Assembly: GCA_963803145.1 (NCBI GenBank) | Contig: CAWDLW010000025.1 | Location: forward strand, 1-64,000 | Reading direction: 5' to 3' | DNA length: 64,000 bases | Source of the DNA: Methanotrichaceae archaeon | GTDB taxonomy: Archaea > Halobacteriota > Methanosarcinia > Methanotrichales > Methanotrichaceae | Part shown: positions 4,082-19,307 of the stretch, in pieces | Position numbering within the stretch: the stretch's first letter is position 1 | Layout: each line of letters starts with the position of its first letter | Position numbers and translations under genes: made by a program | Notes under the pieces: model-generated | The model's database searches: none | Told to the model about the DNA's origin: nothing | What the model saw: the letters and a program-made list of their open reading frames with translations, nothing else

Positions 4082-4321
4082 ATGAGAAGAAGTAGGGGCG
4101 GGGTTATAGCTAAAATCTTAGAGGTCTGTCTAACTGGACCCAGCAAAACACGCGTAGTTTATGGCAGCAATTTGAACTTTAGGACAGTGGTCCCATATCT
4201 AGATTCTCTGATAGCGAATGGACATCTTGTCGTAACTGATGAGATGATGCCAAGATATAAGACCACAGATAAGGGAAAGGAGCTTCTAGCCATAATCAAA
4301 GAGGCTCATGAGTTCTTTTAG
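4082..4321 (+). CDS. Winged-helix DNA-binding protein (HTH_45/ArnR1-like)
   Basis: RRSR..I..IL...SKTRVVYGSNLNF....YL..L..NG....YKTTDKG signature. Confidence 0.85.
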   Translation: MRRSRGGVIAKILEVCLTGPSKTRVVYGSNLNFRTVVPYLDSLIANGHLVVTDEMMPRYKTTDKGKELLAIIKEAHEFF

Positions 4322-4814
4322 CAACATCTGGGGTGGGTGAATGGGGTCCACTTACCAATCCATTGCGGGCTTTCTGTTTCTTGCTATTATATTTCTTGTC
4401 ATACTATCCTTAATAGTGGAGCTGAATTTGGTTGAACCCATTTTGATAATAATATCTTTGATATCAATTACTTGGTTTATAAAGGGGATGACCTAACTCA
4501 GATGGATTGCTCTCACAATGGCCTCTAAGTTGATTCGTGGATTGCGTGCTTAGCGGCGTGCCCTCTTTTTCATGCCCCAATAGAGAGCTAGCAGACCAAT
4601 CACGACTAATTTAAATTTTATGATCTTCTTGATAAGTTTGAACATGGTCTATTCACCGGATCTCTATACAGTCTTAAAACTATAAAAAGATGTAGAAGGA
4701 TCGCAAGAGGTATCATGCCTTCCAGCTCCTCGCCTCCCTAGCCTATCCATCGGCCTCCAATTGATCTATATGCAAGTAAAAGTATAAATCTTAATAACTA
4801 TTAATAGTTGATTT

Positions 4815-4873
4815 GCGAAGGGCATATACTTCTAAAGCAATAGATCGTCCCTCCTAATATTTTTGCCCTTCGC
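4815..4873 (+). ncRNA. Putative sRNA hairpin A1
   Basis: GCGAAGGGCA-39 nt-TGCCCTTCGC; TATAAA at 4783. Confidence 0.55.
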
Positions 4874-5103
4874 CTCCCACCTTTTCTCCACCTCATCCTA
4901 GCCTATCCATTGATCTTCAAACCATCTTAGCCCGGGTCCTATCGGTTTTCCTATCTATCCATCCTGATAGGAGATCGTCGATCCTAGGGCATTATAGAAA
5001 ATAATTTTCTAGGTTTTATGAAATCGAGAGGCTTTAGATAGACATATCATTACTTCATATAGATGTGCCACTATATTTATTAGTTGTAAATACCCTCTAA
5101 ACC

Positions 5104-5152
5104 GGGTCGCAATCGCAAAATCATCGCATTCTAATCACCGCGATTGCGGCCC
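5104..5152 (+). ncRNA. Putative sRNA hairpin B1
   Basis: GGGTCGCAATCGC-23 nt-GCGATTGCGGCCC; TATATTTA upstream. Confidence 0.45.
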
Positions 5153-5279
5153 CTATCTCGATTCTCTAATAATGAATGGTCACATCGTTATAACTGATGA
5201 GAAAACCCGAAAATATCAGACCACAGATAGAGGAAAGGAACTTCTAGTCATGATTAAGGCGACTCATGAGTTTTTCTAA
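5151..5279 (+). pseudogene. 5'-truncated copy of the wHTH gene
   Basis: PYLDSLIMNGHIVITDEKTRKYQTTDRGKELLVMIKATHEFF* aligns with the C-terminal half of 4082-4321. Confidence 0.85.
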
Positions 5280-5378
5280 CCTTACTGTAATCGTCTTATG
5301 TGTACTTTCATAAGCTCTATCATGGTCAATACATATAAGACGTTGAACATTTTGATGGTTCGGCCTGCCAGCCCCATT

Positions 5379-5424
5379 AGTAGTGCCACATTGCATTTAT
5401 AATTCTCTTTGGTGTGGTACTACT
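5379..5424. repeat. 46-bp palindromic site, copy 1
   Basis: AGTAGTGCCACATT-N18-GGTGTGGTACTACT. Confidence 0.75.
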
Positions 5425-5460
5425 TTTTATGGGCTCTTACAACGGCCTCAAATCCAATGC

Positions 5461-5571
5461 TTATGACCTAAGTGCAACCCATAAAAAGAGGATGGCTATA
5501 CCTAGAAGCGCTATAACTATAATAACTATATCTGTTTTCGATTCAATGTCGAACCTATTCCGCAAATTCAT
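5461..5571 (-). CDS. 36-aa single-TM micropeptide
   Basis: MNLRNRFDIESKTDIVIIVIALLGIAILFLWVALRS*; GGAGCGGG purine tract upstream; below the ORF-track length cutoff. Confidence 0.55.
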   Translation of the reverse strand: MNLRNRFDIESKTDIVIIVIALLGIAILFLWVALRS

Positions 5572-5720
5572 GTGTCCCGCTCCCATAAATAGCGCCATTC
5601 TGATTTTAAATAGTTATTCATGAGAAATCCATAACATTGTTCTTGCAATGGCCTATAGGTTGAATCATGGATTGCAATAGTAGCCATCTAAATACTTCTT
5701 TATACAATGTGCCCGTTTCA

Positions 5721-5783
5721 AGCGAAGGGATGATCTATAGCCATCAGACATCTGCCATCTGGTCTTCTCTCGATCCCCTCGCT
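5721..5783 (+). ncRNA. Putative sRNA hairpin A2
   Basis: AGCGAAGGGAT-41 nt-ATCCCCTCGCT; TAAATA at 5689. Confidence 0.55.
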
Positions 5784-5974
5784 CCTCTTTACCTCGTGCA
5801 TTGATCGGCTAGCTAATAGCCTCCAAGCGATCTTCGTCTAGGTCCTATAATCCATCCTGCCGTGAGATCGTCGATCCTAGGGCTTTTTAAAAATTTATAA
5901 TTTGGCATCGATTAAATAATACCACTAATTTATAACTTGGCTCGATTATAATATATTGTTCCTCCTCAGCAATT

Positions 5975-6027
5975 GGGCCACGATCGACTAACATCCCTCA
6001 AAAGGCTTCATCATTTGATCGTGGCCC
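5975..6027 (+). ncRNA. Putative sRNA hairpin B2
   Basis: GGGCCACGATC-31 nt-GATCGTGGCCC; TTTATAA upstream and a CU-rich leader. Confidence 0.45.
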
Positions 6028-6122
6028 GGCCTGATTATTATTTCCAGAATTTCTACCCTGACTTGGCTCTGGCTTGCAATACCAGTTCTCTAAATATATC
6101 CTTTTACAATGCCGAGTTTCAT

Positions 6123-6174
6123 GCGAAGGGATATTTAGTCCATGGTCATCAACCATATTACCCCGTCCCTTCGC
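6123..6174 (+). ncRNA. Putative sRNA hairpin A3
   Basis: GCGAAGGGAT-32 nt-GTCCCTTCGC; TAAATA at 6091. Confidence 0.55.
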
Positions 6175-6324
6175 TTATCCCTCGTCCATGTCCTGCCCTT
6201 TTCTCCTTGCCGTCCTAGGCTACCCTTTCGGACTTCAAGCCATATGCGGCTACGTCCTGGGATAGTTGAATCCTAGATTCCAGTACTAGCTTCCTAAATA
6301 CTTCCTTCTACAATGTATTAGTTT

Positions 6325-6379
6325 CAAGCGACGGGATTCCCTATTATCCTGAGCAGCTTCTACCTTATCCCGTCGCTTG
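6325..6379 (+). ncRNA. Putative sRNA hairpin A4 (compensatory stem variant)
   Basis: CAAGCGACGGGAT-29 nt-ATCCCGTCGCTTG, a perfect 13-bp stem with an A:T to C:G covariation; TAAATA at 6295. Confidence 0.6.
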
Positions 6380-6527
6380 CTTAATCGATCTTCAGAAAAA
6401 TATCATGCTATGAGATCATCAATCTTTGGACAATATAAAATTTATATTTTAGTATCTATAATTTCGAACCACTAATTTATAAGTGTATTCAGCTATATTG
6501 TATAATGTAATTTCTCCTTCCACAATT

Positions 6528-6578
6528 GGGCCACGATCACTATCACCCCTTAGAGGCTTCATCACTTGATCGTGGCCC
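6528..6578 (+). ncRNA. Putative sRNA hairpin B3
   Basis: GGGCCACGATC-29 nt-GATCGTGGCCC. Confidence 0.45.
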
Positions 6579-6671
6579 GCCTGGTTATTATTTCCAGAAT
6601 TTTTACCATGACTTGGCTCTGGCTTGCAATACCAGTTCTCTAAATACTTCCTTTTACACTATACATGCTTC

Positions 6672-6739
6672 AAGCGAAGGGATGCTTGTTCAATAGACAG
6701 TTGACTCAGCTATAATCCTCCTGTCTCATCCTTTCGCTT
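6672..6739 (+). ncRNA. Putative sRNA hairpin A5
   Basis: AAGCGAAGGGATG-42 nt-CATCCTTTCGCTT (one G:U pair); TAAATA at 6641. Confidence 0.55.
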
Positions 6740-6811
6740 ACCAGATCGATGCTTATCAAGCGATATCTATACAAGAAAAACTATTTACAGCTTTAATTGT
6801 AATAAATGGTT

Positions 6812-6881
6812 GCGAAGGGATAATCTATTTTCCGATAGAGATACCCTCACAATTCACCATTGAGATAGTCTCTCCCTTCGC
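6812..6881 (+). ncRNA. Putative sRNA hairpin A6
   Basis: GCGAAGGGA-52 nt-TCCCTTCGC; TATTTA at 6782. Confidence 0.55.
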
Positions 6882-7139
6882 TTCCCCTTCACTCAATGAT
6901 TTATGGATTGCAAGAGGTGTCCTACCTTTTTCTCCTCTCCGTTCCAGACTATCTCGTGGCCTTCAAGCCACCTACAGGCAGTCCCCTTAGTATAATGTCA
7001 TGCCTTGAGATCCGGCCTTTAAAGGGCATTTTAAAAAATAATTTTCTAGGTTTTATGAAATTGAGAGGCTTTAAATAGACGAATCACTACTTTATATAGA
7101 TGTACCACTATATTTATTAGTTGTAAAACCCTCTAAGCC

Positions 7140-7188
7140 GGGCGGCAATCGCAAAACCATCGCATTCTAATCACCGCGATTGCGGCCC
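7140..7188 (+). ncRNA. Putative sRNA hairpin B4
   Basis: GGGCGGCAATCGC-23 nt-GCGATTGCGGCCC. Confidence 0.45.
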
Positions 7189-7314
7189 ATATCTTGATTC
7201 TCTAATAATAAATGGTTATATTATCAAAACTGATGAGAAAACGCGAAAAATAAGACTACAGATAAAGGCAAGGAACTTTTAGCCGTAATCAAGAAGGCTC
7301 ATGAGTTTTTCTAA
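7187..7314 (+). pseudogene. 5'-truncated, frameshifted wHTH copy
   Basis: PYLDSLIINGYIIKTDEKTRK / TTDKGKELLAVIKKAHEFF*. Confidence 0.8.
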
Positions 7315-7408
7315 CCCTAAGGTCTTATGTGTAATTCCATAAACGCTATGAGGATCAGTACATATAAGACGGTGAGCATATCGCAGGTTCAGCCTGCCAG
7401 CCCTCATT

Positions 7409-7454
7409 AGTAGTACCGCATTGCCTATTTGATTCTCCGTAATGTGGTACTACT
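7409..7454. repeat. 46-bp palindromic site, copy 2
   Basis: AGTAGTACCGCATT-N18-AATGTGGTACTACT. Confidence 0.75.
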
Positions 7455-7664
7455 TTTATGGGCTCTTGCAATGACCTCATCTGTATTAGGCGCATTAAAG
7501 TTTGAATGGGAGTAATCTTTAGATTATATATAGATTCGACTGAATAATATATGATAGATAATGGCAGTCAAATATTCTGTACGCGAGATTGTTGACGGGG
7601 ATTATGCTCGCAATCCCGCCATCCTTCTTACAAATCTATATCAATTATGAAGTCCTCAAAAGAC

Positions 7665-7841
7665 TTACTGCATTTCTGTTTTTATCTCTTTGATCAAATC
7701 TAATAAATACGTTCTGTCATCATCCCATCCATTACTCTTTAGAATGACCGCCAATTTATTATCGGTCAGCTCAGGGTTATCTTCTACCCATCTCTTGATT
7801 GCTTTCTTGTCATATGCTCTCTTATCCGTTATTTCTGGCAT
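7665..7841 (-). CDS. 58-aa small helical protein (possibly HTH-like)
   Basis: MPEITDKRAYDKKAIKRWVEDNPELTDNKLAVILKSNGWDDDRTYLLDLIKEIKTEMQ*; protein-like composition; divergent from hairpin A7. Confidence 0.55.
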   Translation of the reverse strand: MPEITDKRAYDKKAIKRWVEDNPELTDNKLAVILKSNGWDDDRTYLLDLIKEIKTEMQ

Positions 7842-7904
7842 TATCTTATCTTTGGCTCGTTAATCTAATAATCTATTTACTCTTGCAATTATTATATATT
7901 GATG

Positions 7905-7977
7905 GCGAAGGGATAATTGAGTCTCAGATAGAACCAAAGCGATATTTCCAATTTGATATAGTCCTCTATCCCTTCGC
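7905..7977 (+). ncRNA. Putative sRNA hairpin A7
   Basis: GCGAAGGGATA-51 nt-TATCCCTTCGC; TATTTA at 7874. Confidence 0.55.
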
Positions 7978-8308
7978 TTTTCCCTTCATGTATCTTGGCT
8001 CTTGCAATGGCCTATTCATCTCACATAGGATCGCAACATCAGGAGGATGTCCCTCTACCACGGGAGGAACATAAACTTACAATGGCCTGAGGTACCATAC
8101 CTTCCAGCTCCTCGCCTCCCTAGCCTATCCATCAGGCTTCAAGCCCTCTACAGGCAGTCCCTAGGATATGTCATGGCCTGAGATCGTCGATCCTGGGGCC
8201 TTATAGAAATTAATTTTCTTGGGTTTATGAAAATCCTTGAACTCTGCCTTTCTTTTTGTCTTCTAAACATGCACGAAACCTAAAAAAGCAAAAATAGGAG
8301 GGAAATCT

Positions 8309-8593
8309 TTACGTTTTAATTTTCTCTACTTCGTTGAGGAAGTAGAAATCAATTTTGATAACACCAGATTTCTTTATCGCTTTTTTTACATCCTCTGATT
8401 CAATAAACTTATGGGCATTTTCTAAGTTATCCCATTCATTCAAAATGGTGATATCATTAGGGTTGTCTGCATCTCGAAAGAGCATGCCCCCTTTCGCACC
8501 ACCACTAGCTTTCCGGGGAGCTGAGAGTTGGTCAAATACAGGTTTCCACTTCGCATAATCCTCAACTTTAACTCTAGCCAACGAATAGGGCAT
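8309..8593 (-). CDS. ABM/dimeric alpha-beta barrel 'cyclase'-like protein
   Basis: RVKVEDYAKWKPVFD...FRDADNPND...EWDNLENA..F pattern; AAGGAG SD. Confidence 0.7.
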   Translation of the reverse strand: MPYSLARVKVEDYAKWKPVFDQLSAPRKASGGAKGGMLFRDADNPNDITILNEWDNLENAHKFIESEDVKKAIKKSGVIKIDFYFLNEVEKIKT

Positions 8594-8740
8594 TATATTA
8601 TCTCCTTTAATCTATTATTGTAGGCATCGCAAGGATATCTAATTTTGGTTTTTTTTTCTAAAGTTGAATTTACGAATAGCTATGAATCTCCTATCATTTC
8701 CAGAGCAGCCACCATCCCTTTTTATTGATCTCTTCCTCGC

Positions 8741-8932
8741 CTAAATCAATGATACTATGCCTCTTGAGTCTATCCTGATCCGGCCTTCTCTCTCTAGGTC
8801 CTCAAGGATAGGATTAATCTCTTGCATCCTTAACCCAGTCCGCCGCCTCAGCTGACTTCGCTTCATCCTTCGGCCATTGTTGTTTAGTGTCCACAGGATT
8901 TTATCATGCGGGGTCTGAGAGGCATCTTTCAT
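8741..8932 (-). CDS. Small winged-helix protein
   Basis: KILWTL...MKRSQLRRRTGL..QEINPILEDLEREGRI pattern. Confidence 0.65.
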   Translation of the reverse strand: MKDASQTPHDKILWTLNNNGRRMKRSQLRRRTGLRMQEINPILEDLEREGRIRIDSRGIVSLI

Positions 8933-9017
8933 TTGTAGATCATGTGATTAACGCTTGCAGGATAAAAGGCCAAGGTGAGCACAGAGCGAAGGTAATAGAA
9001 TCCGCATTATCAGAGTC

Positions 9018-9197
9018 AGTAAAACACGTGTGGTTTATGGCAGCAATTTAAACTTTAAAACGGTGAATCCCTACCTAGATTCTTTAATGGCAAATGGTCA
9101 CATTGTCATAACTAATGAAAAAATGCCAAGATATAAGACTACGGATAAGGGAAAAGAGCTTCTAGCCGTGATCAGGAAGGTTAATGGATTTTTCTAA
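9018..9197 (+). pseudogene. Fourth wHTH copy lacking the N-terminal ~20 codons
   Basis: SKTRVVYGSNLNFKTVNPYLDSLMANGHIVITNEKMPRYKTTDKGKELLAVIRKVNGFF*; in-frame TGA at 8976. Confidence 0.8.
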
Positions 9198-9521
9198 CCT
9201 ATTTGGCGGATGCAAATAGCCGTTATTAAAAGGCATGATGCCTGCTGAAGTTGCAAGGATAGTTTGGTCTAATATCCCATGCTGTTTTGGGCGAATTCTT
9301 GACATATTTAATTGCATAAATTTATCGCTATTATCATACTTTAGGAAAATAAGTCAACGTGAACAATTGCGATCTACTGCTACTGAATAGCCAAAGTAGC
9401 CAAGGTACGTCTAGCTATGTTCCTACATTTTTAAGCCTTTTCTCGATTGAATAGATCTGAGAAAGCTGTAGGCACCCTTATTCAAATAAGTTTTTATAAC
9501 ATAACCATAAATGCTGCATTG

Positions 9522-11450
9522 ATGCCAAATGATAATAATGAGCCGATAATTACTAAGATAAAAAATCTAAAAGAAGAAATAGATACATGCAATGATATGA
9601 TTAATTGTCTAAGAGAAAGAAATCAAGATTCATCATCAGTAATATCAGCGCAAAATATGCTTAATGGAAGGCTTGCTTTTATCAGTGGAGAATTCAATAA
9701 TTCAAAAAAATGTTATGAAGATTCTATTTCCGGCCTACAAGATCTTAACCTATTTGAGGAAATGTCAGTAGTGGCTCTAGAAGCGGCAAAGGAGTTTTGG
9801 GACATAAAAGATATCGAGGCCGCAAAACAGTTTTCTGAGGATGCAGTCAATGGAATTAAATATTCATGGATGATTACATCATTACCAAATAAACTAAGTT
9901 TGCCAGAAACTGCAATAAGAGTTTACGATTTCTCCATAGGCCTATGTTACTCGATTAAGGAATATGACCAAGTATTTGAATATGTTCAGCGAGTTAAAGC
10001 GCATTGGCTTCTAGATATAATGGCTTTGCAGCATCTTGGGAAATCAGTTCCTTTTCGGCGGCTATTGGTGGGGAGAAAACTGGATGATCTACTAATAAAT
10101 GATAAATCTGAATTTACAGAACTATCTAGCGAACTGGATAGCCGATGGAAGAATTACCTTTCTGGACACCTTTTAGAGAAAGAACTTGAAAATATAGAGG
10201 AAAGGGTCTTAGAATCCTATTCTAAATATTCAAGACACTTTGATGGACCTATTGTGGCAATGGCATCGATACCCACTATAAAGGACATACAAAGACGACT
10301 GGACATCAATGAAGGCATATTAGAATATTTTGTACAGAAAGATGGCGTTTATATAATTGTAATCAAAAATAATGATTATGAGATTGAATTCAAATCTATT
10401 GATCCTAATATATTGAAAGAACGTATTCCTTTTATATACATAAATTTGATTCAAGCTGAGAGTAGAAGACAGGCTGAGAACAGGGCAAAGGAAACAAAAG
10501 ATATCGATAAATCGGAGACAATTAATGATTGGAAAAATTCTTATCCAAGCCCTGTAGAAGGCTTGAAATGGCTATATGATATTTTAATTGAGCCTGTCGA
10601 AGATAATATTAGAAATGTTAATAGACTTATAATTTGTCCACATTGGTTATTAAATATCGTTCCATTTGCAGCTTTGCTTTCCGCAAAAGACAACAAGTAT
10701 GTTGTAGAATCCAAGAGCATCACATACTCACCCAATGCTTCTATTTGGGCCAAGATGATGGATATCAAGAAAGAAAAAGCATCATCTAAAGAGACTATTG
10801 CTCTAGTTGTTGGTGTAGAACAAATGCATGTTTCAAAATGGTGGGATTCTGTTGGAAACTTCATTGGCAAATTAATTGGGAACGAAAATATATCTGATTT
10901 TGAAGGAGAAGCAGCGAGTATTGCCAAAGATCTCAACGCCATTCCACTTATAGGGCCATCCGCACAAAAAGATGCTATCCTCAATCGATTTCAATCGTCG
11001 GATATAATTCATTTTAGTTGCCATACAGTTGAACGCGCGAAACCCTTGGTTAATGGACTTCTCTTGGCGGATGGCGTATTGACCCTTGCGGAAATTCTGA
11101 TTAATGAAAAGATTGGTGGATCTAGTCCATCCATCATAACTCTAAGTGCTTGCAGAAGCGGTATCAATAGAGTGGAGCCCGGCGATAATATATGGGGCAT
11201 AGGGTATGGATTTCTTGCACGATGTGGCTGCCCTATACTCTCTTCACTTTGGCCAGTGGATGCTGAGGCTACGAGATTCATAATGGAAAGATTTTATAGA
11301 TATGGTATTATTAATTCTGATTGGTCAGATGCTTTGAAGAAAGCGCAAAATGAGCTAATGGTCTCCTTTAGCCGACTTGATAAAAAGGGAAGATCCATTA
11401 GCTTTAAGGATCCTTACTATTGGTCGGGTTTCTTCTTGCTCGGACCTTGA
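9522..11450 (+). CDS. CHAT (caspase-like) protease with helical/TPR-like N-terminus
   Basis: IICPHWLLNIVPFAAL, IIHFSCH (His), TLSACRSG (Cys), SLWPVDAEAT, PYYWSGF; AT-rich; start ATG 9522 (ORF open from 9447). Confidence 0.9.
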   Translation: MPNDNNEPIITKIKNLKEEIDTCNDMINCLRERNQDSSSVISAQNMLNGRLAFISGEFNNSKKCYEDSISGLQDLNLFEEMSVVALEAAKEFWDIKDIEAAKQFSEDAVNGIKYSWMITSLPNKLSLPETAIRVYDFSIGLCYSIKEYDQVFEYVQRVKAHWLLDIMALQHLGKSVPFRRLLVGRKLDDLLINDKSEFTELSSELDSRWKNYLSGHLLEKELENIEERVLESYSKYSRHFDGPIVAMASIPTIKDIQRRLDINEGILEYFVQKDGVYIIVIKNNDYEIEFKSIDPNILKERIPFIYINLIQAESRRQAENRAKETKDIDKSETINDWKNSYPSPVEGLKWLYDILIEPVEDNIRNVNRLIICPHWLLNIVPFAALLSAKDNKYVVESKSITYSPNASIWAKMMDIKKEKASSKETIALVVGVEQMHVSKWWDSVGNFIGKLIGNENISDFEGEAASIAKDLNAIPLIGPSAQKDAILNRFQSSDIIHFSCHTVERAKPLVNGLLLADGVLTLAEILINEKIGGSSPSIITLSACRSGINRVEPGDNIWGIGYGFLARCGCPILSSLWPVDAEATRFIMERFYRYGIINSDWSDALKKAQNELMVSFSRLDKKGRSISFKDPYYWSGFFLLGP

Positions 11451-11459
11451 TAATTATTA

Positions 11460-11900
11460 TTACACCTTTCTCCCGATAATAATTGGAACGAATAACGTAT
11501 ATAATGCCAATATTACTGCAGCTTGATAAGGCTTATACCAAGCGAAATTGCTGAAAGGCCCTCCTAGAGCAAATACCCATAGGATAAAAGCTATCGTCGC
11601 CACAATTATTTGTGTATAGGCATGAGGTTTGCCTGGCTCGTCAGTAACGCGCCACATATAAAGGGGAGTTGCTATTGTCAATATTAAAAAAATTCCAAAG
11701 AAAAAGGTATTTGACGTTTCTCCAGCCGCCTTTATGATGCTATCAATTGCAACATATACAGAAACTACCTCAGTGGGAATATATTTTGCAATTCTTTCCG
11801 AAGTAGCATCTGGTTTTTCTTCTGCCTGTCCGCCTGGGACTATTCCCTTTGTTTTTCTTGATTCCGCTATATCACTTTCTGTTATAACACGACGAGACAT
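11460..11900 (-). CDS. 4-TM membrane protein (RIAKYIPTEVV family)
   Basis: GAGGAGG SD before ATG 11900; hydrophilic N-terminal tail followed by four hydrophobic segments. Confidence 0.75.
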   Translation of the reverse strand: MSRRVITESDIAESRKTKGIVPGGQAEEKPDATSERIAKYIPTEVVSVYVAIDSIIKAAGETSNTFFFGIFLILTIATPLYMWRVTDEPGKPHAYTQIIVATIAFILWVFALGGPFSNFAWYKPYQAAVILALYTLFVPIIIGRKV

Positions 11901-12419
11901 TATAAGACCCTCCTCGTCCAGTAATTGCGAATCATAAGAATTTTCAACTATAAAATTGCATCTGTTTTTCTCCTTTAAATTGTAATCAATAATCAAATAT
12001 TTATCTCGTATCCTGGCAGACACCTATCTGGCTTGGAGATACGGCCGCAATAGGCATTCCTTCTCCAAGCGGAAAGAAAAATATAAGTCTCAATGCTAAA
12101 TAGTAATTAATGTGCAAGAGGTTGTTCCTTATAAATGGAACAAAACCATTTATGCATTCCTATTCGCCCTTTGCACCATCCTCTATTCTTTAGGTTCGCT
12201 ATTTGTATGTGTTTAGCTATACCAGACTCGGTTGTTAGATGCGGGTTTCAGTTCCTAACGGATTAATATATATTAATCTGTATTTAAATGAAATCGATAT
12301 CATTGGCGTCTTGGCCCTCAAAACAACCTTTAGCAATTAGCAGCAGGAGAAGTCGTAAAAATGGCTCATGGATACTGATTATAGTGAGCTAAACACATAC
12401 CGCTATTTCATAAGGAGAT

Positions 12420-12803
12420 TTAGGATGAACTCCTCAGGATATCAGCCTTCAACTTCTTTGCTTTCTCTATCGCCTCTGCATGGCTAACCTTCTTAACGCT
12501 GCCTAGATGCTTTGTGACTGTCTTATCCCCCACTCGCCATGAGCAGAGCCAACGATCATAGGTTTTAGGCCCTTTCTTGGTTTGCTTCACAATGGGAGCC
12601 TGCCTAACCGTGAGGTCCTCAAGCCTCGCGTGTGTGGCCAATGCGAAAGCTGTCTCACCTAGCTCCTTAGCTCTGTGAGCCTTCACCGCAGCCAAAGCCC
12701 TTGTCTCCTCAATGGCTGCTAAAGTTTGGGCTTCTCCTTCCAGCTTCTTGGCCTTCTTCCTCATCTCGCGGGCCTTTGCCCTGCTGGCAGTGTCATGAAC
12801 CAT
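12420..12803 (-). CDS. Coiled-coil protein with Arm/AP2-like DNA-binding domain (mobile-element associated)
   Basis: RWLCSWRVGDKTVTKHLGSVKKVSHAEAIEKAKKL resembles integrase Arm-type domains. Confidence 0.55.
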   Translation of the reverse strand: MVHDTASRAKAREMRKKAKKLEGEAQTLAAIEETRALAAVKAHRAKELGETAFALATHARLEDLTVRQAPIVKQTKKGPKTYDRWLCSWRVGDKTVTKHLGSVKKVSHAEAIEKAKKLKADILRSSS

Positions 12804-12955
12804 ATGCTCTCCAAATCATTTTTATCCAAGTCGGCTCTATCCAGTCTTGTCCATATCTGGCGGGCAGTTTTGCCCTAGATCCTGCATAGTAGTTCTCGCC
12901 TTCTGGCCCGCCTTTGCGATATCCACAGGCTCATGGTGTGTTTCTAACGATAGAT

Positions 12956-13001
12956 AGTAGTACCACATTACATATGTAGTTATTTTTAATGTGGTACAAC
13001 T
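12956..13001. repeat. 46-bp palindromic site, copy 3
   Basis: AGTAGTACCACATT-N18-AATGTGGTACAACT. Confidence 0.75.
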
Positions 13002-13136
13002 AAGGGCGGCGAGGGTGGATAGTCGGGTGTGAAATCGATATGCTCTAGATAGTGAAGGCCCAAAGGATAGGCTCTATTCGCGGAGAGGTCTATAAGCGTC
13101 GTGAAGAGGATTATAAGGTTTATTAGGATGCCTGGG

Positions 13137-13209
13137 TGTTCAGGCTATTGAGGATTTGTTTAGGTTGTTTAGCTTGTTCAGGCTAACATGGGTTTTGTTC
13201 GGGTTGTTC
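13137..13209. repeat. Iteron-like 9-mer repeats TTGTTYAGG
   Basis: tgttcaggc, ttgtttagg, ttgtttagc, ttgttcagg, ttgttcggg, ttgttc. Confidence 0.5.
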
Positions 13210-13292
13210 TACCTGAGATCACCTCTTCGGCCAGTCAATACAGATCGTAAATTAGGCGTCTATACATCGATCGATGGCCTAGATCATCAGAT

Positions 13293-15508
13293 TCATTTGA
13301 TGGGCCATTCTGGTATGGCTTTATCTATCTCTTTCATCAAGCGAATGGTCTCCTTCAAGGCTACAACGACCTTCTGGTAATGAGTAAGATCATCATAGGA
13401 TAATTGTCTGCCTCTTCGATCTTTAAGCCATTTCTCACAGACCTGATAGCCTCCTACATAGAAATTCCAAACCTCCAGAGGGACGCCATCGAAGTATTGT
13501 ATTTGGTTTATTTTGATGCAGCCATTTTTGTTATCATCATGAACGATGAACTTTGGGTATCCTTTCTCTACCTGGTTATTTCCTGGCATTGGATAGTGAG
13601 TAATGAATTTGGAGACTTCAGGGGAGTCTAACACGTGCAGCGAAACTAGTTCCTTTCCAAGTCCGCATAGTTTACGGAAGAGATCAATACTTGATGTCAG
13701 CGGCACTCTAGGGAAGTCATTCTTCAGGAACTCAGCATAGCGCTGCCTGTAGGTTGGCGAGTGGAATATGGAGTAGATGTAGTCGAAAACGTCCTCTGGC
13801 CCGAAGGTAGTTGTCAAGTCGCCGTGACCATCTGAGATGAACTTGAGGTTGAGGCATGATTCAATTGCCGAAACAAAATCGTGGCTTAGATTGGGGGTTC
13901 GGCCATCTTTGCCGGGAGGCCAAAATGAGTTCTGCAATGTGTTTTGGCGTGAGGACTTCTGTTCAATGGATGGATAAAGATAAAGTGGGAAAAGATTGTT
14001 GATGTCGTATGCAGCACATGATTTATGTCCACATATTAGAGCTGTAGCTAGAATATCCCATTGATCTCGTGTTTGTCGAGTGGCTATCAGACCTAAATTC
14101 CCTTTCGGCACCATATGTTGCATTACTTCTTGTCTTGGAAGTTCTACAACATCTTGACTGTGATAATAATATCTAAAATCAAAAGGCCGATAAAGACATT
14201 TCGTGAAATGGCTCTGCCATTCTGAATTCTCTGATAAGGAGCGCCTTTTTTGATTTAATTTCCAATCACGTGTATCTGAAAGGTTGTATTTTTCCCGTAT
14301 TTTATCATCTAAAATATTTAAGTTTCTGAAGTCCTCAATTCGAGTTCGAAGTGATGCTTGATCGCAATCCAACACAAAGTGGTCGCGATGCGTTTTTACT
14401 CCTGTAGAATTAATTGGCATTATCTCTGTAATTTTCCAATTTCTTTCATACTCTGGCTGCGAAGTGGTATCTTGAGGCACAAAAAAATAGAATGGAGGAC
14501 GTGGTTCTATGATTGTCCATGGAGTGTTACTGACACCATTTACGAGTAACTTTTCATACTTGTTTTCCCTACTTCCCCATAGGTCTGCATGATAAATTGT
14601 TGCTTGACCCTCCTTATTCGGCTCTTTTACAAAGATTCCGATTGCTACACCCTGCTGGATGTCGAAAATATTCTCATCTTTTGAACCATCGGGAGAGCGC
14701 TCTTTCTTTTTGCTATTTCCATGTAAATTTAGAATATAAATTTGTGTAAAATTAGCGATTAAAGATTTGCGCATCTCTCTGAATGTAGGATTATCAAGAT
14801 AACCGTTATTGGTGATGAATGCCAAAATGCCTGCACCAGTATGCGCAATTCTCCACTGTCCCCAACGGATAAATTTAACATAATCATCCAATAAGAGTTT
14901 CGGATTATGTTCTTTTATGTCATCATGTGGATAATAGTCTTTCCGAATAAGATCAATAATCCATTTACCTTTATTCGCCGAATTTGCAGAATATGGTGGA
15001 TTGCCTAAAACTACCATTATCGGGTAATCACGCTTGACTACTGAAGCTGAACGTGCCTCTTTTCCTATGACCTCATAACCCCACAAGGATTTCCATGGAT
15101 TATCAGATTCCTCAAGCGTGTTTGTAAGGTAGATACCCAATCGCTCATCACTGGCAAAGTCATAAGCCCAATCTTTTTGTAAATCCAAGGGCAAATCCTG
15201 ACCAGCTAGTTGCATTCCGAGCTTGAAATGTGTTATAGCATAAGGTGCCATAAGCAATTCAAACCCAAAAATACGTGTCAACAAGTAACGTTTAACGTAT
15301 TCAGACCATAGACCGGCATTTCCATATTTCATGAATTCGCTTCGGATCAAATCAACTATCGCATAGAGAAAAGTTCCTGTTCCTGTAGCAGGGTCAAGCA
15401 TAAGAACCTTGGGGCGTATTTCATGGACGATTCTTGTGGGAAATGCATTCTTTTCTGGCTCTCCTCGAAAATCGGTAAAAAACGTTTCTCTGTCGAATTC
15501 AATGGTAC
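13293..15508 (-). pseudogene. Type ISP/IIG-like N6-adenine methyltransferase-specificity enzyme, N-terminally truncated by IS630
   Basis: LDPATGTGTFL (motif I), GNPPYS (motif IV), FITNNGYLDNPTF, YRPFD, GGYQVCEKWLKDR (ISP C-terminal domain); reading frame ends at the IS end. Confidence 0.85.
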
Positions 15509-15510
15509 TA

Positions 15511-16693
15511 GTGCAGCATAACACAAGTTTTTTATCCTAGCAAGTCCTTATGATCGCTAATCATGTCGAGGAAAACAATATTCGTCGTAAAATTGACAGA
15601 TGAGGATCGGGAATATCTGAACCAGTTTATTCGCCATGGAAAGGCATCTGTAAGAAGCGTGACTCGTGCCAGGACACTGCTCATGGCAGACGAAGGTTAC
15701 TCCAATAAAGATATCGTAAAGATTCTAAAAATAACCAGACCTACGGTTAACAGTGCAAGGAAAAGGTACTGCCAGGAAGGTTTGGACTCTGCAATAAACG
15801 ATAAACCAAGAAGCGGCGCACCTCCAAAGATAGATGGAAGGATTGAGACACAAGTTACCCTTCTTGCCTGTTCGAAACCACCGGAAGGCAAATCGACCTG
15901 GACTCTGAAGCTTTTAGCCGATAGGCTCGTGGAAATGGAGGTAATAGAATCCATATCTACCATGACCGTTCAGAGGATCTTAAAAAAAGCGAGACCAAGC
16001 CTTGGCAGAAGGTTAGATGGTGTATTGGCGAGATAACAAGCGATTACATCATGCATATGGAAGATGTGCTGGATCAATATGAGCAACCCTATGATCCTAA
16101 GCATCCTTTAATCTGCATGGATGAGATGCCATGCCAATTGATAGACAACGTTTTAGTTCCTATTCCTCCTAAACCTGGAAAATCACAAAAAGTCGATTTT
16201 GAATATCGCCGTAATGGTACATGCTGTGTTTTCATCGCCTTTGATCCACATGCCCGTTGGAGAACAATATCTGTTGAAGAACACCGGACGAAAATTGATT
16301 ATGCCCATTTTATGAAAGGGCTTTCCCAGAAATATCCTGAGGCAGAATACCTTAAAGTTGTCCAGGATAACCTTAACACTCACTCATCTGGTTCATTTTA
16401 TGAAGCATTCTCGCCTGAGGAGGCGTTCCAGCTTGCCAAGAAGTTTGAGTTCCATTTTACTCCAAAGAAGGGTAGCTGGCTTAACATGGCTGAGATTGAG
16501 TTCTCGGCTCTTTCAAGGCAATGCTTGAACCGACGAATTGGCGATATCAAAACTTTAGCCAAGGAAGCGAAAGCTTGGGAACAGGATCGGAACAGGGCTA
16601 AAGTAGCTATTCGATGGAAGTTCACCAAAGCCAATGCAAGAGAGAAGTTCTGTAGGCATTACCTTAAGATAAAGAATTAATGTTATGATGTAC
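15511..16693 (+). mobile_element. IS630-family element (1183 bp)
   Basis: TIRs GTGCAGCATAACA / TGTTATGATGTAC, flanked by TA within CTAG; ORFs 15563-16036 and 16051-16680 joined by an A7 -1 frameshift at 15982. Confidence 0.92.
15563..16680 (+). CDS. IS630 transposase (programmed -1 frameshift)
   Basis: HTH ORF-A; shifted frame KKSETKPWQKVRWCI; DDE motifs CMDE, VQDNLNTH, SWLNMAEIEFS. Confidence 0.9.
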
Positions 16694-16699
16694 TAGTTA

Positions 16700-16729
16700 G
16701 AGCTGGGATTGGCCCTGTTATCCCAGCTC
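16700..16729 (-). terminator. Hairpin downstream of the disrupted secreted-protein gene
   Basis: GAGCTGGGAT-N10-ATCCCAGCTC, 8 bp past the stop codon. Confidence 0.45.
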
Positions 16730-16737
16730 CATTTTCC

Positions 16738-19307
16738 CTACTTCTTTGGACTGAACTTTATAGCTCGATCATACACGATCTCTGAGTAGGATGGCCCAGT
16801 TTTTGTAGCCTTTTCCAAGTAGCTCCTCCACCAGATATAAATCGGCTGATTCGGATGTATGCCGTAGCTCCCTGGACCATAGGGAACCTTAAAGCAATGC
16901 GGATCGCCATTACAATTTCTGGCAACCTTATAGACATAAAGGTATTTCGCGTCTGGATTATTGGGGAGGTATTCCTCAGCGGTTCCGTTGAAATCAGCAT
17001 CATTGATTGCTCCAATACCATTCCATATGTCCGCTCCACAAACGGCGAAGTTCTCGTATGTAGCCTTTCCAGTGGCTACATGGTTAACCCCATAGACGAT
17101 TATGAAATCATTGGTATCGTTGCCTAAAGTAATTGCTGGATGATATACAAACGGATAGCTCAGCGAGAGATTAGGGAAAGAAGGTGTCGGCGAAGAGATC
17201 GCTTGGTTTACAGTCCATAGATAGCACGCATCGTTGTCAGGGATTAAGGCGTCAATTCCTCTCTGAATAGCATCAATCCCCACTGGAACCGGTATACTAG
17301 TTGGAAGCTCTGTGGCTTTCAATCCACTGTATTTTTTAAGAATCGCCTCCCTCAGTTGTTCGAGGTCATTTGTAAGGTCAAACTCTGTTTTTCCCGTTCC
17401 ACGTACTCTTATATCTGGATAACTATAGTTAATCATTGAGCTTATTGCCCTATAGATACATTTAATAATTAATGCGTGAAAATACATAGGCATGGGTAGA
17501 AAACCTATAATAATTAGGCATATATCAAAGATAGACCTTGATAAATTATATAAAAAAGAGACTGATCTAAGGATTAAGGAACGGTTATTGGCAATAATAC
17601 ATTTATATGAAGGGAAAAACGTATATGAGGTAGCTGATATTTTAAAAAGGGGCGAGAGGACAATAAAATATTGGTTAAGCAGATGGAATAATCATGGCTA
17701 TAATGGATTGACACCAAAGAATAGAAATGGCAAAAAGCCAAAGATGTCTCTTGATGAATGGGATAGAGTTATTAAAGAAATTGAAGACAAAGGAATGACG
17801 ATAAAAGACGTATTAAAATATGTAAGGGATACAAGAGGTATAGATTTTTCATATAAATATGGCTGGCGAATTTTAAGAGTAGTGAAAAAAGTTAAGTATG
17901 GGAAACCATACATCAGAAATGAAAAGAGGCCTGCAGATGCAGAAAGTTTTTTAAAAAAGGATAAAATCAGTGCTGACCACAGTTACTGATCCTGTTATAG
18001 GATTTCTTGATGAAAGCTCTTTACAACAGCGCCCTAATACACGTAGAGTCTTAAACACTCATTTAATAAATTATAAACCTGGAAAGGTTAGATCAAGAAC
18101 TATTTTTGGATTTATAGCATTAAATGGCAATGATGAGGTTATGGTTTCCAACTCCTCTAAGAAGGAAGCGTTGATGGCATTTGCTCAAAATATAAGAAAT
18201 AATAATATTATGAGGCCAATTTGTATACTTTTAGATAATGCTAGAATTCATTTGGCCAAGAAATTTAGAAAACTAGCTGAGGAAATCGATATTCACTTAA
18301 TTTATAATATCCCCTATTCACCAGATTTGAATCCTATAGAATTCGGTTGGAAGGATTTCAAAAGAGAGATCGCCAAATACACTGATTTCGATGAAGCTAT
18401 TATAGCTAGCCAAGATTGCGCTTTAGAAATATTTTATTCCAAAAAGGATGGATATTCAAAGTCCTGGGTGGAGCGATTTCTTAGTGCAAAAAGCTAGGAG
18501 ATTAACTATATATGGGTCAAGCTTTGTGGATTCGTTGGGAGTTATGCGGAAAACAGTTGCAGGTGTATTATTTATGTAATTATCTCCAGCTTGCTTATCT
18601 TTGAATAAAGCTGGACGGATTATTATAGCAAATGTATCGGAGTTATTCTCCAGGCCCATGTTCAACATAGCCGAGGGAAACATCTGGGTGTTAAAAATGT
18701 CGCCCGAATACCCTGCAGATAAGGCAGCAGCGCGGATGCGTTGATCAATGCCTCTGTCGGCTGTGGCGACTATCACAGTAGTTTGGTTGAATGGATTTCC
18801 AGCCAACCCATTAGGAGTCCTTTCAGTATTGATGACCAAGTTGTTTACTGTATCTGCTATGTTGGCAAAGACCCATCGGGTTTCATTTCCATATGTTCTA
18901 TCCACTATATAATGATCGTAACTAAAGTATCTACATTCTGGCGGTGTTCTTCCCACGAAAACAACAGCTTCATCTGGATCAAGATTCCAAAATGAAGATA
19001 AGTTCGATCTCAATCCGATCGCTCTAGCTATCTTAGAAAACAGTTCAGGTACCTTAGACCCAGGTGCCGGTGGAACAAAATATGTCAAATATTTCGTGGC
19101 AGGATTGTTTCCATAGCATGAAGGTAAGACTCCTAAGTCATGTAATTTGATCGCATCAAAAAAACCTAGCCCACCTTTCTGTACAGTAAATCCATCCTTT
19201 TCTAAGGCTTTTTGAAAAGCCTTAACGTCACCTGTTGTCGCATTCTGTCCAAGGCCAATTCCTATTAACATGGCGAATAAAATTGTTAATATTATATATA
19301 TTTTCAT
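16738..19307 (-). pseudogene. Secreted protein (~494 aa) split by IS630
   Basis: Removing 17426-18508 plus one TA restores ...KLDPYSYPDIRVRGTG...; signal peptide at 19307. Confidence 0.88.
17426..18508 (+). mobile_element. IS630-family element (1083 bp), second type
   Basis: TATAGTTAATC / GATTAACTATA ends with TA duplication; ORFs 17492-17989 and 17970-18497 with a T6A6 slippery site; FLDE, LDNARIH, PYSPDLNPIE. Confidence 0.92.

Follow-up and report, generated by a model that had tools for sequence, protein, structure and literature searches.

We present a sequence family of short hairpin units in the genome of a Methanotrichaceae archaeon, seven of which lie in one 3.2-kb part of the window (the whole 64,000-nt stretch of DNA that was analysed), and which is characterized by promoter motifs at a fixed spacing, compensatory changes in the stem, enrichment of one loop motif, exchange of modules between copies and a narrow taxonomic range. 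With a probability of roughly one half, these units encode a clade-restricted family of trans-acting small RNAs that would mask Shine-Dalgarno (SD) sites by means of exchangeable loops mounted on a common clamp. In the proposed mechanism, where transcription, RNA ends, pairing with mRNA and any protein partner are predicted from the sequence, each unit would have an archaeal promoter to itself, of type P1 or P2 in the window, with a third type found elsewhere. Transcription would begin at the first G of a conserved, G/C-rich stem of 9-11 bp, or 2-3 nt ahead of that G. This stem, the "clamp", would hold together the two termini of an RNA 49-73 nt long and display a G-poor, mostly unpaired loop of 31-55 nt. 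Loops with CCUCCU, a copy of the 16S rRNA 3' end, would pair with the SD sites of mRNAs and thereby keep ribosomes from binding, and the adjacent loop bases would set the target preference of each copy. Four units of the window may continue into a C/U-rich tail with further anti-SD motifs, and some RNAs may reach about 200 nt. The copies would have diversified by swaps of hairpin modules at the conserved arms.

All seven hairpins of a preliminary description of this DNA were recovered at the positions given there, and the TATA-like boxes that it placed 30-33 nt before the stems were verified for every unit. The units, A1 to A7, start 907, 401, 205, 346, 138 and 1093 bp apart, and their features, with the associated tail modules, are as follows.

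4706-4776, + strand: orphan tail fragment ahead of A1 (nhmmer E 8e-7; 91% identity to 8089-8142)
4778-4790, + strand: P2 promoter-like box of A1, a BRE-like A-run and TATAAAT at -32 from the stem
4815-4873, + strand: hairpin A1 (covariance model 42.4 bits), stem extended to GCGAAGGGCA / TGCCCTTCGC, CCCUCCU in the loop
4874-5012, + strand: tail after A1, C/U-rich with a conserved A/T-rich end block (nhmmer 4876-5008, E 4e-27)
5689-5721, + strand: P1 promoter-like region of A2, TAAATAC at -33, GTTTCAA abutting the stem
5722-5782, + strand: hairpin A2 (39.8 bits), one A.C stem mismatch
5783-5903, + strand: tail after A2 (nhmmer E 1e-26)
6091-6174, + strand: unit A3, P1 box at -32, hairpin 6123-6174 (37.8 bits)
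6295-6376, + strand: unit A4, P1 box at -33, hairpin 6328-6376 (43.9 bits)
6641-6737, + strand: unit A5, P1 box at -33, hairpin 6674-6737 with a G.U pair and UCCUCCU in the loop (45.5 bits)
6782-6881, + strand: unit A6, P2 box at -30, hairpin 6812-6881 (41.3 bits)
6912-7045, + strand: tail after A6 (nhmmer E 4e-29)
7874-7977, + strand: unit A7, P2 box at -31, hairpin 7905-7977 (41.0 bits)
8088-8217, + strand: tail about 110 nt after A7 (nhmmer E 2e-30)

Chance does not account for the arms. The window contains 29 sequences within one mismatch of GCGAAGGGA, more than in any of 100 shuffles (13.1 +/- 3.8), and 14 of these 29 form the arms of the seven inverted pairs. Genome-wide, the exact pattern GCGAAGGG-N25-55-CCCTTCGC has 12 occurrences and its reversed control none. 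With arms of 9 nt, the loop length had to be corrected from the earlier 29-52 nt to 31-55 nt. The compensated arms were present as described, namely GCGACGGGAT / ATCCCGTCGC in A4, where the fifth pair is altered on both sides from A-U to C-G, and GGGCA / TGCCC in A1, along with the G:U pair of A5; the A.C mismatch in the A2 stem had been overlooked.

Pairing was analysed in an alignment of 40 stems with 11 pairs, where 87.7% of the cells were paired compared with 43-54% in slid registers, a figure that is inflated because most rows were gathered by a pattern demanding near-consensus arms. Changes on both sides were seen at six stem pairs, with a covariation score reached by 0 of 500 shuffles. 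These compensatory changes support the 9-11 bp stem and the earlier view that its structure is under selection, though its sequence is mostly conserved; conservation far exceeds covariation in the core, where 8 positions hold an identical pair in 37-39 of the 40 rows. Since G.U cells (4) and A.C or C.A cells (5) are equally common there, the stem bears no strand-specific RNA signature.

Strand and start are indicated rather by the boxes ahead of the stems, whose position at 30-33 nt points to the + strand as the sense strand and predicts a start at the stem base. P2, which consists of an A-run followed by TATTTAC or TATAAAT, resembles the BRE/TATA of the tRNA genes of the same genome (A+T peak at -34 to -28), and the A1 layout recurs ahead of 8 other P2 units. 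Every P1 copy in the genome (7/7) is followed by a hairpin, and P1 is conserved beside hairpins in a second genus as well. A third type of unit, located outside the window, has a GGGAAAC-nTTAT box similar to the tRNA-Ile promoter. An own promoter, one hallmark of small RNAs that mask ribosome binding sites, is thereby seen at the level of motifs, through fixed spacing, likeness to tRNA promoters and conservation across genera, and a promoter linkage of the window units is supported. By eye, no consistent oligo-T terminator follows the stem of the P1 units.

The modular make-up of the family can be deciphered from comparisons between copies. As previously noted, A3 and A5 share their upstream DNA (5854-6132 against 6402-6683, 78% identity over 286 nt), and the likeness ends at the 5' arm; similarly, A2 and C11:18129-18425 are 91.6% identical over 298 nt and diverge at the 5' arm. 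Over 65 nt, the A5 hairpin shares 92% identity with C8:535035-535099, the latter copy standing behind a P2 promoter and A5 behind P1. The loops are not unique and unrelated, as had been thought, and form subfamilies, some of them conserved between species and genera: the hairpins of A1, A2 and A5 each have relatives, A1 in hairpin and loop at C42:83863-83932, and A2 with a loop subfamily common to C17:21600 and loci of genomes G002, G005, G019 and G042, which extends to the second genus. No loop was found to be inverted relative to its promoter. The only structure that RNAalifold predicted in the tails was one 6-bp hairpin (covariation term +0.58).

Loop composition was assessed on 23 promoter-oriented, non-redundant loops, whose kinship reduces the independent events to fewer than 23. 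They are poor in G (13%), and CCTCC (CCUCC in RNA) occurs in 9/23 against 1.54 expected, CCTCCT (CCUCCU) in 8/23 against 0.51 expected, and GGAGG in 0/23; within the window, exact CCUCC is present in only 2 of the 7 loops. The 16S rRNA of the organism ends in ...GGATCACCTCCT, and CCUCCU equals its last six bases. Loop bases are mostly unpaired in minimum free energy (MFE) folds, and an unpaired anti-SD region, a further hallmark of small RNAs masking ribosome binding sites, is seen in the motif enrichment together with these folds. The notion of an exchangeable specificity module is partly borne out: hairpins were indeed swapped between near-identical flanks, but the recurring anti-SD motif speaks against a free-form specificity. 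The longest loop complements to 10,702 candidate start regions have a median of 12-13 nt, as in shuffles. A1 has a complement of 15 nt (P ~0.02 per RNA, non-significant over 22 RNAs), and the sole significant unit is C7, outside the window and without a P1 or P2 box, with a 19-nt complement (0/3300 shuffles).

About 22 loci were detected by the covariance model in the same genome, and the family was found in 8 of 105 Methanotrichaceae genomes (genera g1 3/3, g4 3/3, g15 1/2 and g2 1/59), mainly in two genera. One locus has almost the same sequence in the three g1 genomes and keeps its syntenic place there; for a unit kept in synteny in three species, 49/52 bases are identical between G000 and G002. 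At the syntenic place of A7, G002 has a P2 hairpin with a different loop, and A4 has a degenerate relative in that genome. The units cluster in variable islands: the present one has 7 within 3.2 kb, and an island of about 11 kb in G002 contains at least 10. Rfam 15 gave 0 matches at the gathering score over the whole window; in E-value mode, positions 4300-9400 gave just two chance-level hits (E 2 and 3.5), and no tRNA was found in the window. The arm pattern had 0 matches in viral contigs, and the strict P1 pattern 0 matches in metagenome contigs. A scan of genome contigs with the arm pattern returned 63 stretches; those from outside Methanotrichaceae MAGs, each a lone hit in an unrelated bacterium, were attributed to chance. 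Hits of the pattern in genus g8 and others were GC-rich and unconfirmed by the covariance model. A near-identical palindromic repeat in G004 is a different repeat and was set aside.

The same signals can be read on the other strand, where the P2 A-run becomes a T-run and the tail end a BRE/TATA, so that an antisense transcript is equally well signposted for the tail-bearing units. A functional transcript from this purine-rich strand, or a sense/antisense pair, is nevertheless considered improbable. It would start at the reversed tail-end block, pass through the hairpin, then carrying AGGAGG, and end at the T-run (the reversed P2 A-run), possibly as a leader or regulator of the small genes on the left side. 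In its favour, the tail-end block reads on the - strand as an A-run followed by TATTTTCT, like tRNA promoters, T4-T5 runs lie 35-40 nt past the hairpin of P2 units, A1, A2 and A7 have small - strand genes beyond them, and a 58-aa gene is conserved in G002 with the P2 hairpin and tail end. P1 units, however, are without the T-run and often without the tail, and the distance from tail-end block to hairpin varies (~110-250 nt), in contrast to the constant 30-33 nt of P1 and P2. Furthermore, no conserved reading frame follows AGGAGG, and the 45-aa gene near A2 has, by eye, its own TATA-like box near its start. A role of the units as DNA, either as palindromic sites for a recombinase or DNA-binding protein or as fold-backs promoting template switching, with promoter-like boxes that are incidental or belong to other transcripts, is likewise rather unlikely. 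It would suit the exact breaks of similarity at the arms (A2 against C11; A3/A5), the recurrence of the A5 hairpin behind a different promoter, the other loops in the syntenic island of G002, the clustering in variable islands, the stem without a G.U over A.C bias and the adjoining winged-helix genes. It would leave the strand-specific loop composition and the CCUCCU enrichment unexplained, and it is further opposed by the constant orientation of loops to promoters at fixed spacing, by an arm spacing of 31-55 nt that is awkward for a dimeric binder and by the lack of any integrase or recombinase family among the 42 window ORFs scanned (42/61 ORFs of at least 110 aa, plus small ones).

That the units are selfish or decaying repeats of the MITE, REP or PATE kind with no cellular function appears very unlikely. 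They are multi-copy and mosaic, lie in islands with IS630-like elements and pseudogenes, and share the genome with IS200-like Y1 transposases; yet a comparison of the arms with two resident IS types, the terminal repeats of the IS630-like elements and the end hairpins of the IS200-like ones, gave no match, and inspection by eye showed no target duplications in the flanks. Unlike MITE copies, the interiors differ in sequence and length except in a few related pairs, and both the unit kept in synteny in three species and the P1-hairpin combination kept across two genera argue against decay. Most improbable is a type I toxin-antitoxin arrangement in which the hairpin RNAs are antitoxins to putative toxins encoded as divergent small hydrophobic peptides. 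Such ORFs do adjoin A1 (31 aa, 4550-4645) and A2 (45 aa, 5461-5598), with a near-identical 45-aa ORF beside the C11 unit, but a hydrophobic neighbour accompanies only 3 of 23 units examined, and 7 window loops against 9 local start regions gave no pairing below z = -2 relative to shuffles.

Several coding and linkage candidates were also tried and rejected. No consistent ORF begins after the - strand AGGAGG, some units but not all have an ATG behind the 5' arm, and the ATG of the tail end opens frames of just 7-28 aa in 8/8 tail ends (13 regex hits, of which 5 without tail context were dropped). HTH_45 has 36 matches in the genome, but just one of the intact genes is preceded by a hairpin at a distance of up to 330 nt.

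Few archaeal regulatory RNAs have a known mechanism, and Methanothrix is a major methane producer; for this genus, a literature search gave no paper describing a regulatory RNA of known mechanism. If the SD-masking RNA reading holds, the family would offer a natural variant series for studying target choice by archaeal small RNAs, a handle on an archaeal sRNA-binding protein and a ready-made template from which translational repressors for methanogens could be engineered. A bolder and rather doubtful version sees in it a plug-in antisense platform, in which swappable loop cassettes are mounted on an invariant promoter and clamp helix that a dedicated protein probably recognizes; the cassettes, many of them mimics of the 16S 3' end, would be shuffled at the clamp arms and amplified into arrays in variable, defence-rich islands, yielding reprogrammable, heritable translation repressors possibly directed against mRNAs of mobile elements or secreted proteins. 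The preliminary term "guide array" implied an effector, and none was found. Should the elements act as DNA instead, similarity that breaks off precisely at the arms would suggest a kind of recombination not yet described.

Among known systems, CRISPR arrays likewise have a conserved repeat flanking variable inserts; as had been argued, the present units are no such array, the arms being inverted rather than direct and the spacing irregular. No Cas family occurs among the 42 window ORFs scanned against Pfam (ORFs up to 45250), in line with the preliminary description, and the genome's own CRISPR repeat (contig C12) is unrelated to the hairpin arms. Integron attC sites are also imperfect palindromes, arrayed in a variable region, whose conserved ends enclose a variable centre. 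In contrast to these, the 42 window ORFs scanned include no integrase, and a promoter-like box precedes every unit. The intervals of 138-1093 bp are mostly without intact genes: they are free of ORFs or contain remnants of pseudogenes or small ORFs on the opposite strand; the arm sequence is presumably unrelated to the attC R box consensus. Similar in the proposed mode of action are the C-rich-loop small RNAs of Firmicutes (RsaE/RoxS and RNAIII type), in which C-rich hairpin-loop motifs pair with SD sequences; these are bacterial, single-copy and equipped with intrinsic terminators. In Methanosarcina mazei, as two reports describe, sRNA162, sRNA154 (through loop 2) and sRNA41 mask ribosome binding sites, and they are intergenic small RNAs of an archaeon from a related order with an unpaired region that pairs with the ribosome binding site of the target (PMC3510493, PMC5867862). 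The anti-SD motif of the present loops would suit this masking mode. The family has no sequence or Rfam relation to the M. mazei RNAs and differs from them in its ~22 copies per genome, which have one terminal clamp in common, are partly arrayed and have loops swapped between copies.

Seven hairpins, A1 to A7, are arrayed on the forward strand of the window, each consisting of a conserved stem of 9–11 bp (the clamp) around a variable loop, and all of them were found at the positions given in the preliminary description. The array sits within ~5 kb (roughly 4300–9400) without an ORF above 100 aa. Searches for tRNA genes and for Rfam families gave no match there. The hairpins and the elements interspersed with them are as follows:

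4082–4321, +, intact HTH_45 winged-helix gene
4341–4496, +, 51-aa very hydrophobic ORF after the intact HTH_45 gene
4550–4645, −, 31-aa hydrophobic ORF, divergent from A1
4815–4873, +, hairpin A1
4957–5024, tail-end block
5100–5270, degenerate HTH_45 remnant
5461–5598, −, 45-aa hydrophobic ORF, divergent from A2
5722–5782, +, hairpin A2
5850–5917, tail-end block
6123–6174, +, hairpin A3
6328–6376, +, hairpin A4
6674–6737, +, hairpin A5
6812–6881, +, hairpin A6
6994–7061, tail-end block
~7130–7319, degenerate HTH_45 remnant
7665–7841, −, 58-aa soluble protein ORF without a Pfam match
7905–7977, +, hairpin A7
8166–8233, tail-end block
9009–9185, degenerate HTH_45 remnant

With at most one mismatch, the 9-mer arm has 29 matches in the window, compared with 13.1 ± 3.8 in shuffled sequence (none of 100 shuffles reached 29), and the seven inverted pairs account for 14 of these matches. 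Across the whole genome (4.13 Mb, 45% G+C), of which the window forms part of contig C25, the exact arm-gap-arm pattern was encountered 12 times and its reversed control not once. A covariance model built on 40 oriented hairpins and applied at E ≤ 0.1 detected 22 loci in this genome, 16 already in the model and 6 new, and the window array makes up one third of the genome's copies. At E ≤ 0.001, 8 of 105 Methanotrichaceae genomes gave matches, namely 3/3 of genus g1, 3/3 of g4, 1/2 of g15 and 1/59 of g2; the top scores of G000 (the genome under study), G001, G002, G005 and G042 arise partly by construction, as their sequences are included in the model, while G019, G041 and G092 were matched though absent from it. 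Scanning of 185,579 species genomes with the arm pattern revealed multiple copies only in records titled Methanotrichaceae, the bacterial records with single matches each being taken as chance, and the same scan of viral contigs gave nothing. Another cluster, of at least 10 copies within ~11 kb, is present in G002. The literature searched contained no description of the family.

The best-supported reading, to which we assign a probability of about one half, is that the hairpins belong to a clade-restricted RNA family, promoter-driven and built on the clamp, whose members would act like the sRNAs of Methanosarcina mazei that mask ribosome binding sites (RBS). The family has no sequence relation to those sRNAs and stands out for its many copies, its arrays and its modular make-up.

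Over 40 distinct rows, the 11 stem pairs are 87.7% paired versus 43–54% in slid registers, a figure biased towards pairing insofar as most rows were gathered with a pattern requiring near-consensus arms. Changes on both sides were observed at six stem pairs (16 cells), and the covariation score was reached by 0 of 500 shuffles. In the window, A1 and A4 show the compensated arms and A5 the G:U pair as claimed, and the stem of A2 additionally carries an A.C mismatch. The eight core pairs hold the identical pair in 37–39 of the 40 rows, and such strong conservation of sequence suggests recognition by a protein. The core shows no G.U excess (4 G.U cells against 5 A.C/C.A cells). Taken together, the data indicate that stem pairing is selected, without telling RNA from DNA. 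That the hairpins act at the DNA level is a rival reading given lower weight.

The TATA-like boxes reported upstream of the stems were recovered as described. The P1 type, which precedes A2–A5, has TAAATAC at −33/−32 and then a conserved stretch whose final GTTTCAA abuts the stem; a hairpin follows each of the 7 P1 copies in the genome, and P1 is also found before hairpins in genus g4, G001 and G002. The P2 type precedes A1, A6 and A7 and comprises an A-run, TATTTAC or TATAAAT at −30 to −32, and an A/T-rich stretch. P2 fits the promoter layout of the genome's 40 tRNA genes, in which an A-rich element is followed by a TATTTAT-like box with an A+T peak at −34 to −28. A third type of unit (in G002 and on contigs C27 and C29) combines a GGGAAAC-nTTAT box with an additional GCGAAG-type hairpin upstream and has the same downstream motif. 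The fixed spacing between box and stem argues for a predicted RNA polymerase start at the stem base on the + strand. On the opposite strand, P2 has a T-run in place of its A-run and the conserved block ending the C/U-rich tail behind some hairpins reads as BRE/TATA, so that an antisense, purine-rich transcript is possible for tail-bearing units; that this strand is the functional one was likewise weighted lower. CRISPR arrays, attC sites, MITE/PATE/REP elements and type I toxin-antitoxin systems were each considered, and the defining features tested failed in every case.

Returning to RBS-masking RNAs, the loops span 31–55 nt, contain 13% G and are mostly unpaired in MFE folds. Motifs were counted in 23 loops whose strand was fixed by P1 or P2 alone, leaving out near-duplicates (C8b, C33, the G002 copy of the C9 unit and the G002 relative of A4) and one weak-P2 unit. 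CCTCC was found in 9/23 loops against 1.54 expected from shuffled loops, CCTCCT in 8/23 against 0.51 and GGAGG in 0/23, the independent events being fewer than 23 since some loops are common by descent. The 16S rRNA 3′ end is GGATCACCTCCT, the last six bases of which (CCUCCU) are the anti-Shine-Dalgarno. Among the window loops the exact CCTCC motif is confined to A1 and A5, with weaker C/U-rich versions in A6, A7 and A2.

Nine nearby start regions gave no notable pairing with any of the seven loops in the window. In a set of 10,702 candidate start regions, perfect complements extended to 11–15 nt at most, the same distribution as in 3,300 core-preserving shuffles. The 15-nt complement of A1 coincides exactly with the RBS of a gene for a secreted 142-aa protein (C33:12343), with P ~0.02 per RNA and non-significant across 22 RNAs. 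The sole outlier was the family member on contig C7 (C7:11255–11314), which lies elsewhere in the genome than the window and has neither a P1 nor a P2 box: 19 nt of it are complementary to the leader/RBS of a Cys-rich repeat protein (C16:119438–119456, gene at C16:119462) and 17–18 nt to two paralogues (C27:63736–63753 and C27:66233–66249). The genes concerned encode secreted, Cys-rich repeat proteins of 310–344 aa, and the likeness extends to the first bases of the leader, GCGAA, as though the 3′ half of the hairpin were an antisense copy of it. Another member, at C29:10786–10847, abuts the stop codon of an opposite-strand gene, so its predicted RNA would be antisense to the 3′ end of that gene.

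The loops had been described as unrelated, which does not hold: they are not free-form, and several have relatives at other loci. The A1 hairpin is related to C42:83863–83932, the A2 loop subfamily has members in G002 and three g4 genomes, and the C9 unit is syntenic in G000, G001 and G002. The A5 hairpin, behind P1 in the window, recurs behind P2 at C8:535035–535099 (92% identity). The A2 flank is 91.6% identical to C11:18129–18425 over 298 nt, the likeness ending at the 5′ arm, where the previously noted duplication upstream of A3 and A5 (78% over 286 nt) also ends. The island is syntenic in G002 (left-flank gene 87% identical; 621 nt before the A7 promoter 82% identical), where only two hairpins occur, with loops differing from those of the window. 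These breaks, the promoter switch of A5 and the G002 loops support the proposal of an exchangeable loop as an evolutionary pattern; no loop inverted relative to its promoter was seen.

The ~130-nt C/U-rich tail follows A1, A2, A6 and A7, as well as hairpins elsewhere and in G002. Its conserved structure is slight, and it terminates in an A/T-rich block that contains a GATCG-n-CGATC palindrome and is strongly conserved (85–91% identity between copies, present in G002). The ATG of the block opens frames of just 7–28 aa in 8/8 tail ends. Nothing else in the repeat landscape is as well conserved as this block, which is promoter-like on either strand and has no gene after it.

HTH_45 matches number 36 genome-wide. 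In the intact gene, a perfect palindrome of 16 bp was discerned by eye between the TATA-like box and the ATG. A 12-bp hairpin with a T-run, probably a terminator, follows HTH_45 remnants at 5383–5440 and 7399–7464. Judged from sequence, the 31- and 45-aa ORFs are possible membrane peptides; the latter has a near-identical copy beside the C11 hairpin (~18160–18296). The 58-aa protein has two copies in G002 (L110 and L091, ~93% identity), each encoded divergently from a hairpin of the P2 type with a loop unlike that of A7. A different ~61-nt palindromic repeat, bounded by GCGAAGGGC / GCCCTTTGC and conserved in its interior, occurs in G044 (C19) and as five near-identical copies on five contigs of G004 (e.g. 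L094, L099, L104), and is not a member of the clamp-hairpin family. Downstream, 9447–19307 resembles a variable or defence island; it has genes for a CHAT-domain protein (without counterpart at the syntenic place in G002) and a type ISP restriction-modification enzyme, along with two IS630-like elements (HTH plus DDE_3). A second hairpin type, whose ~30-nt loop is flanked by the arms GGCCACGATC / GATCGTGGCC, is found in both copies of the local duplication (5976–6026 and 6529–6577) and nowhere else in the genome. A TTGCAAT-like motif, often beside GGCC, was discerned by eye at 4506–4545, 5636–5675, 6080–6090, 6905–6915 and 7990–8015; it recurs close to P1 promoters and behind hairpins, and may be a binding site of some winged-helix protein.
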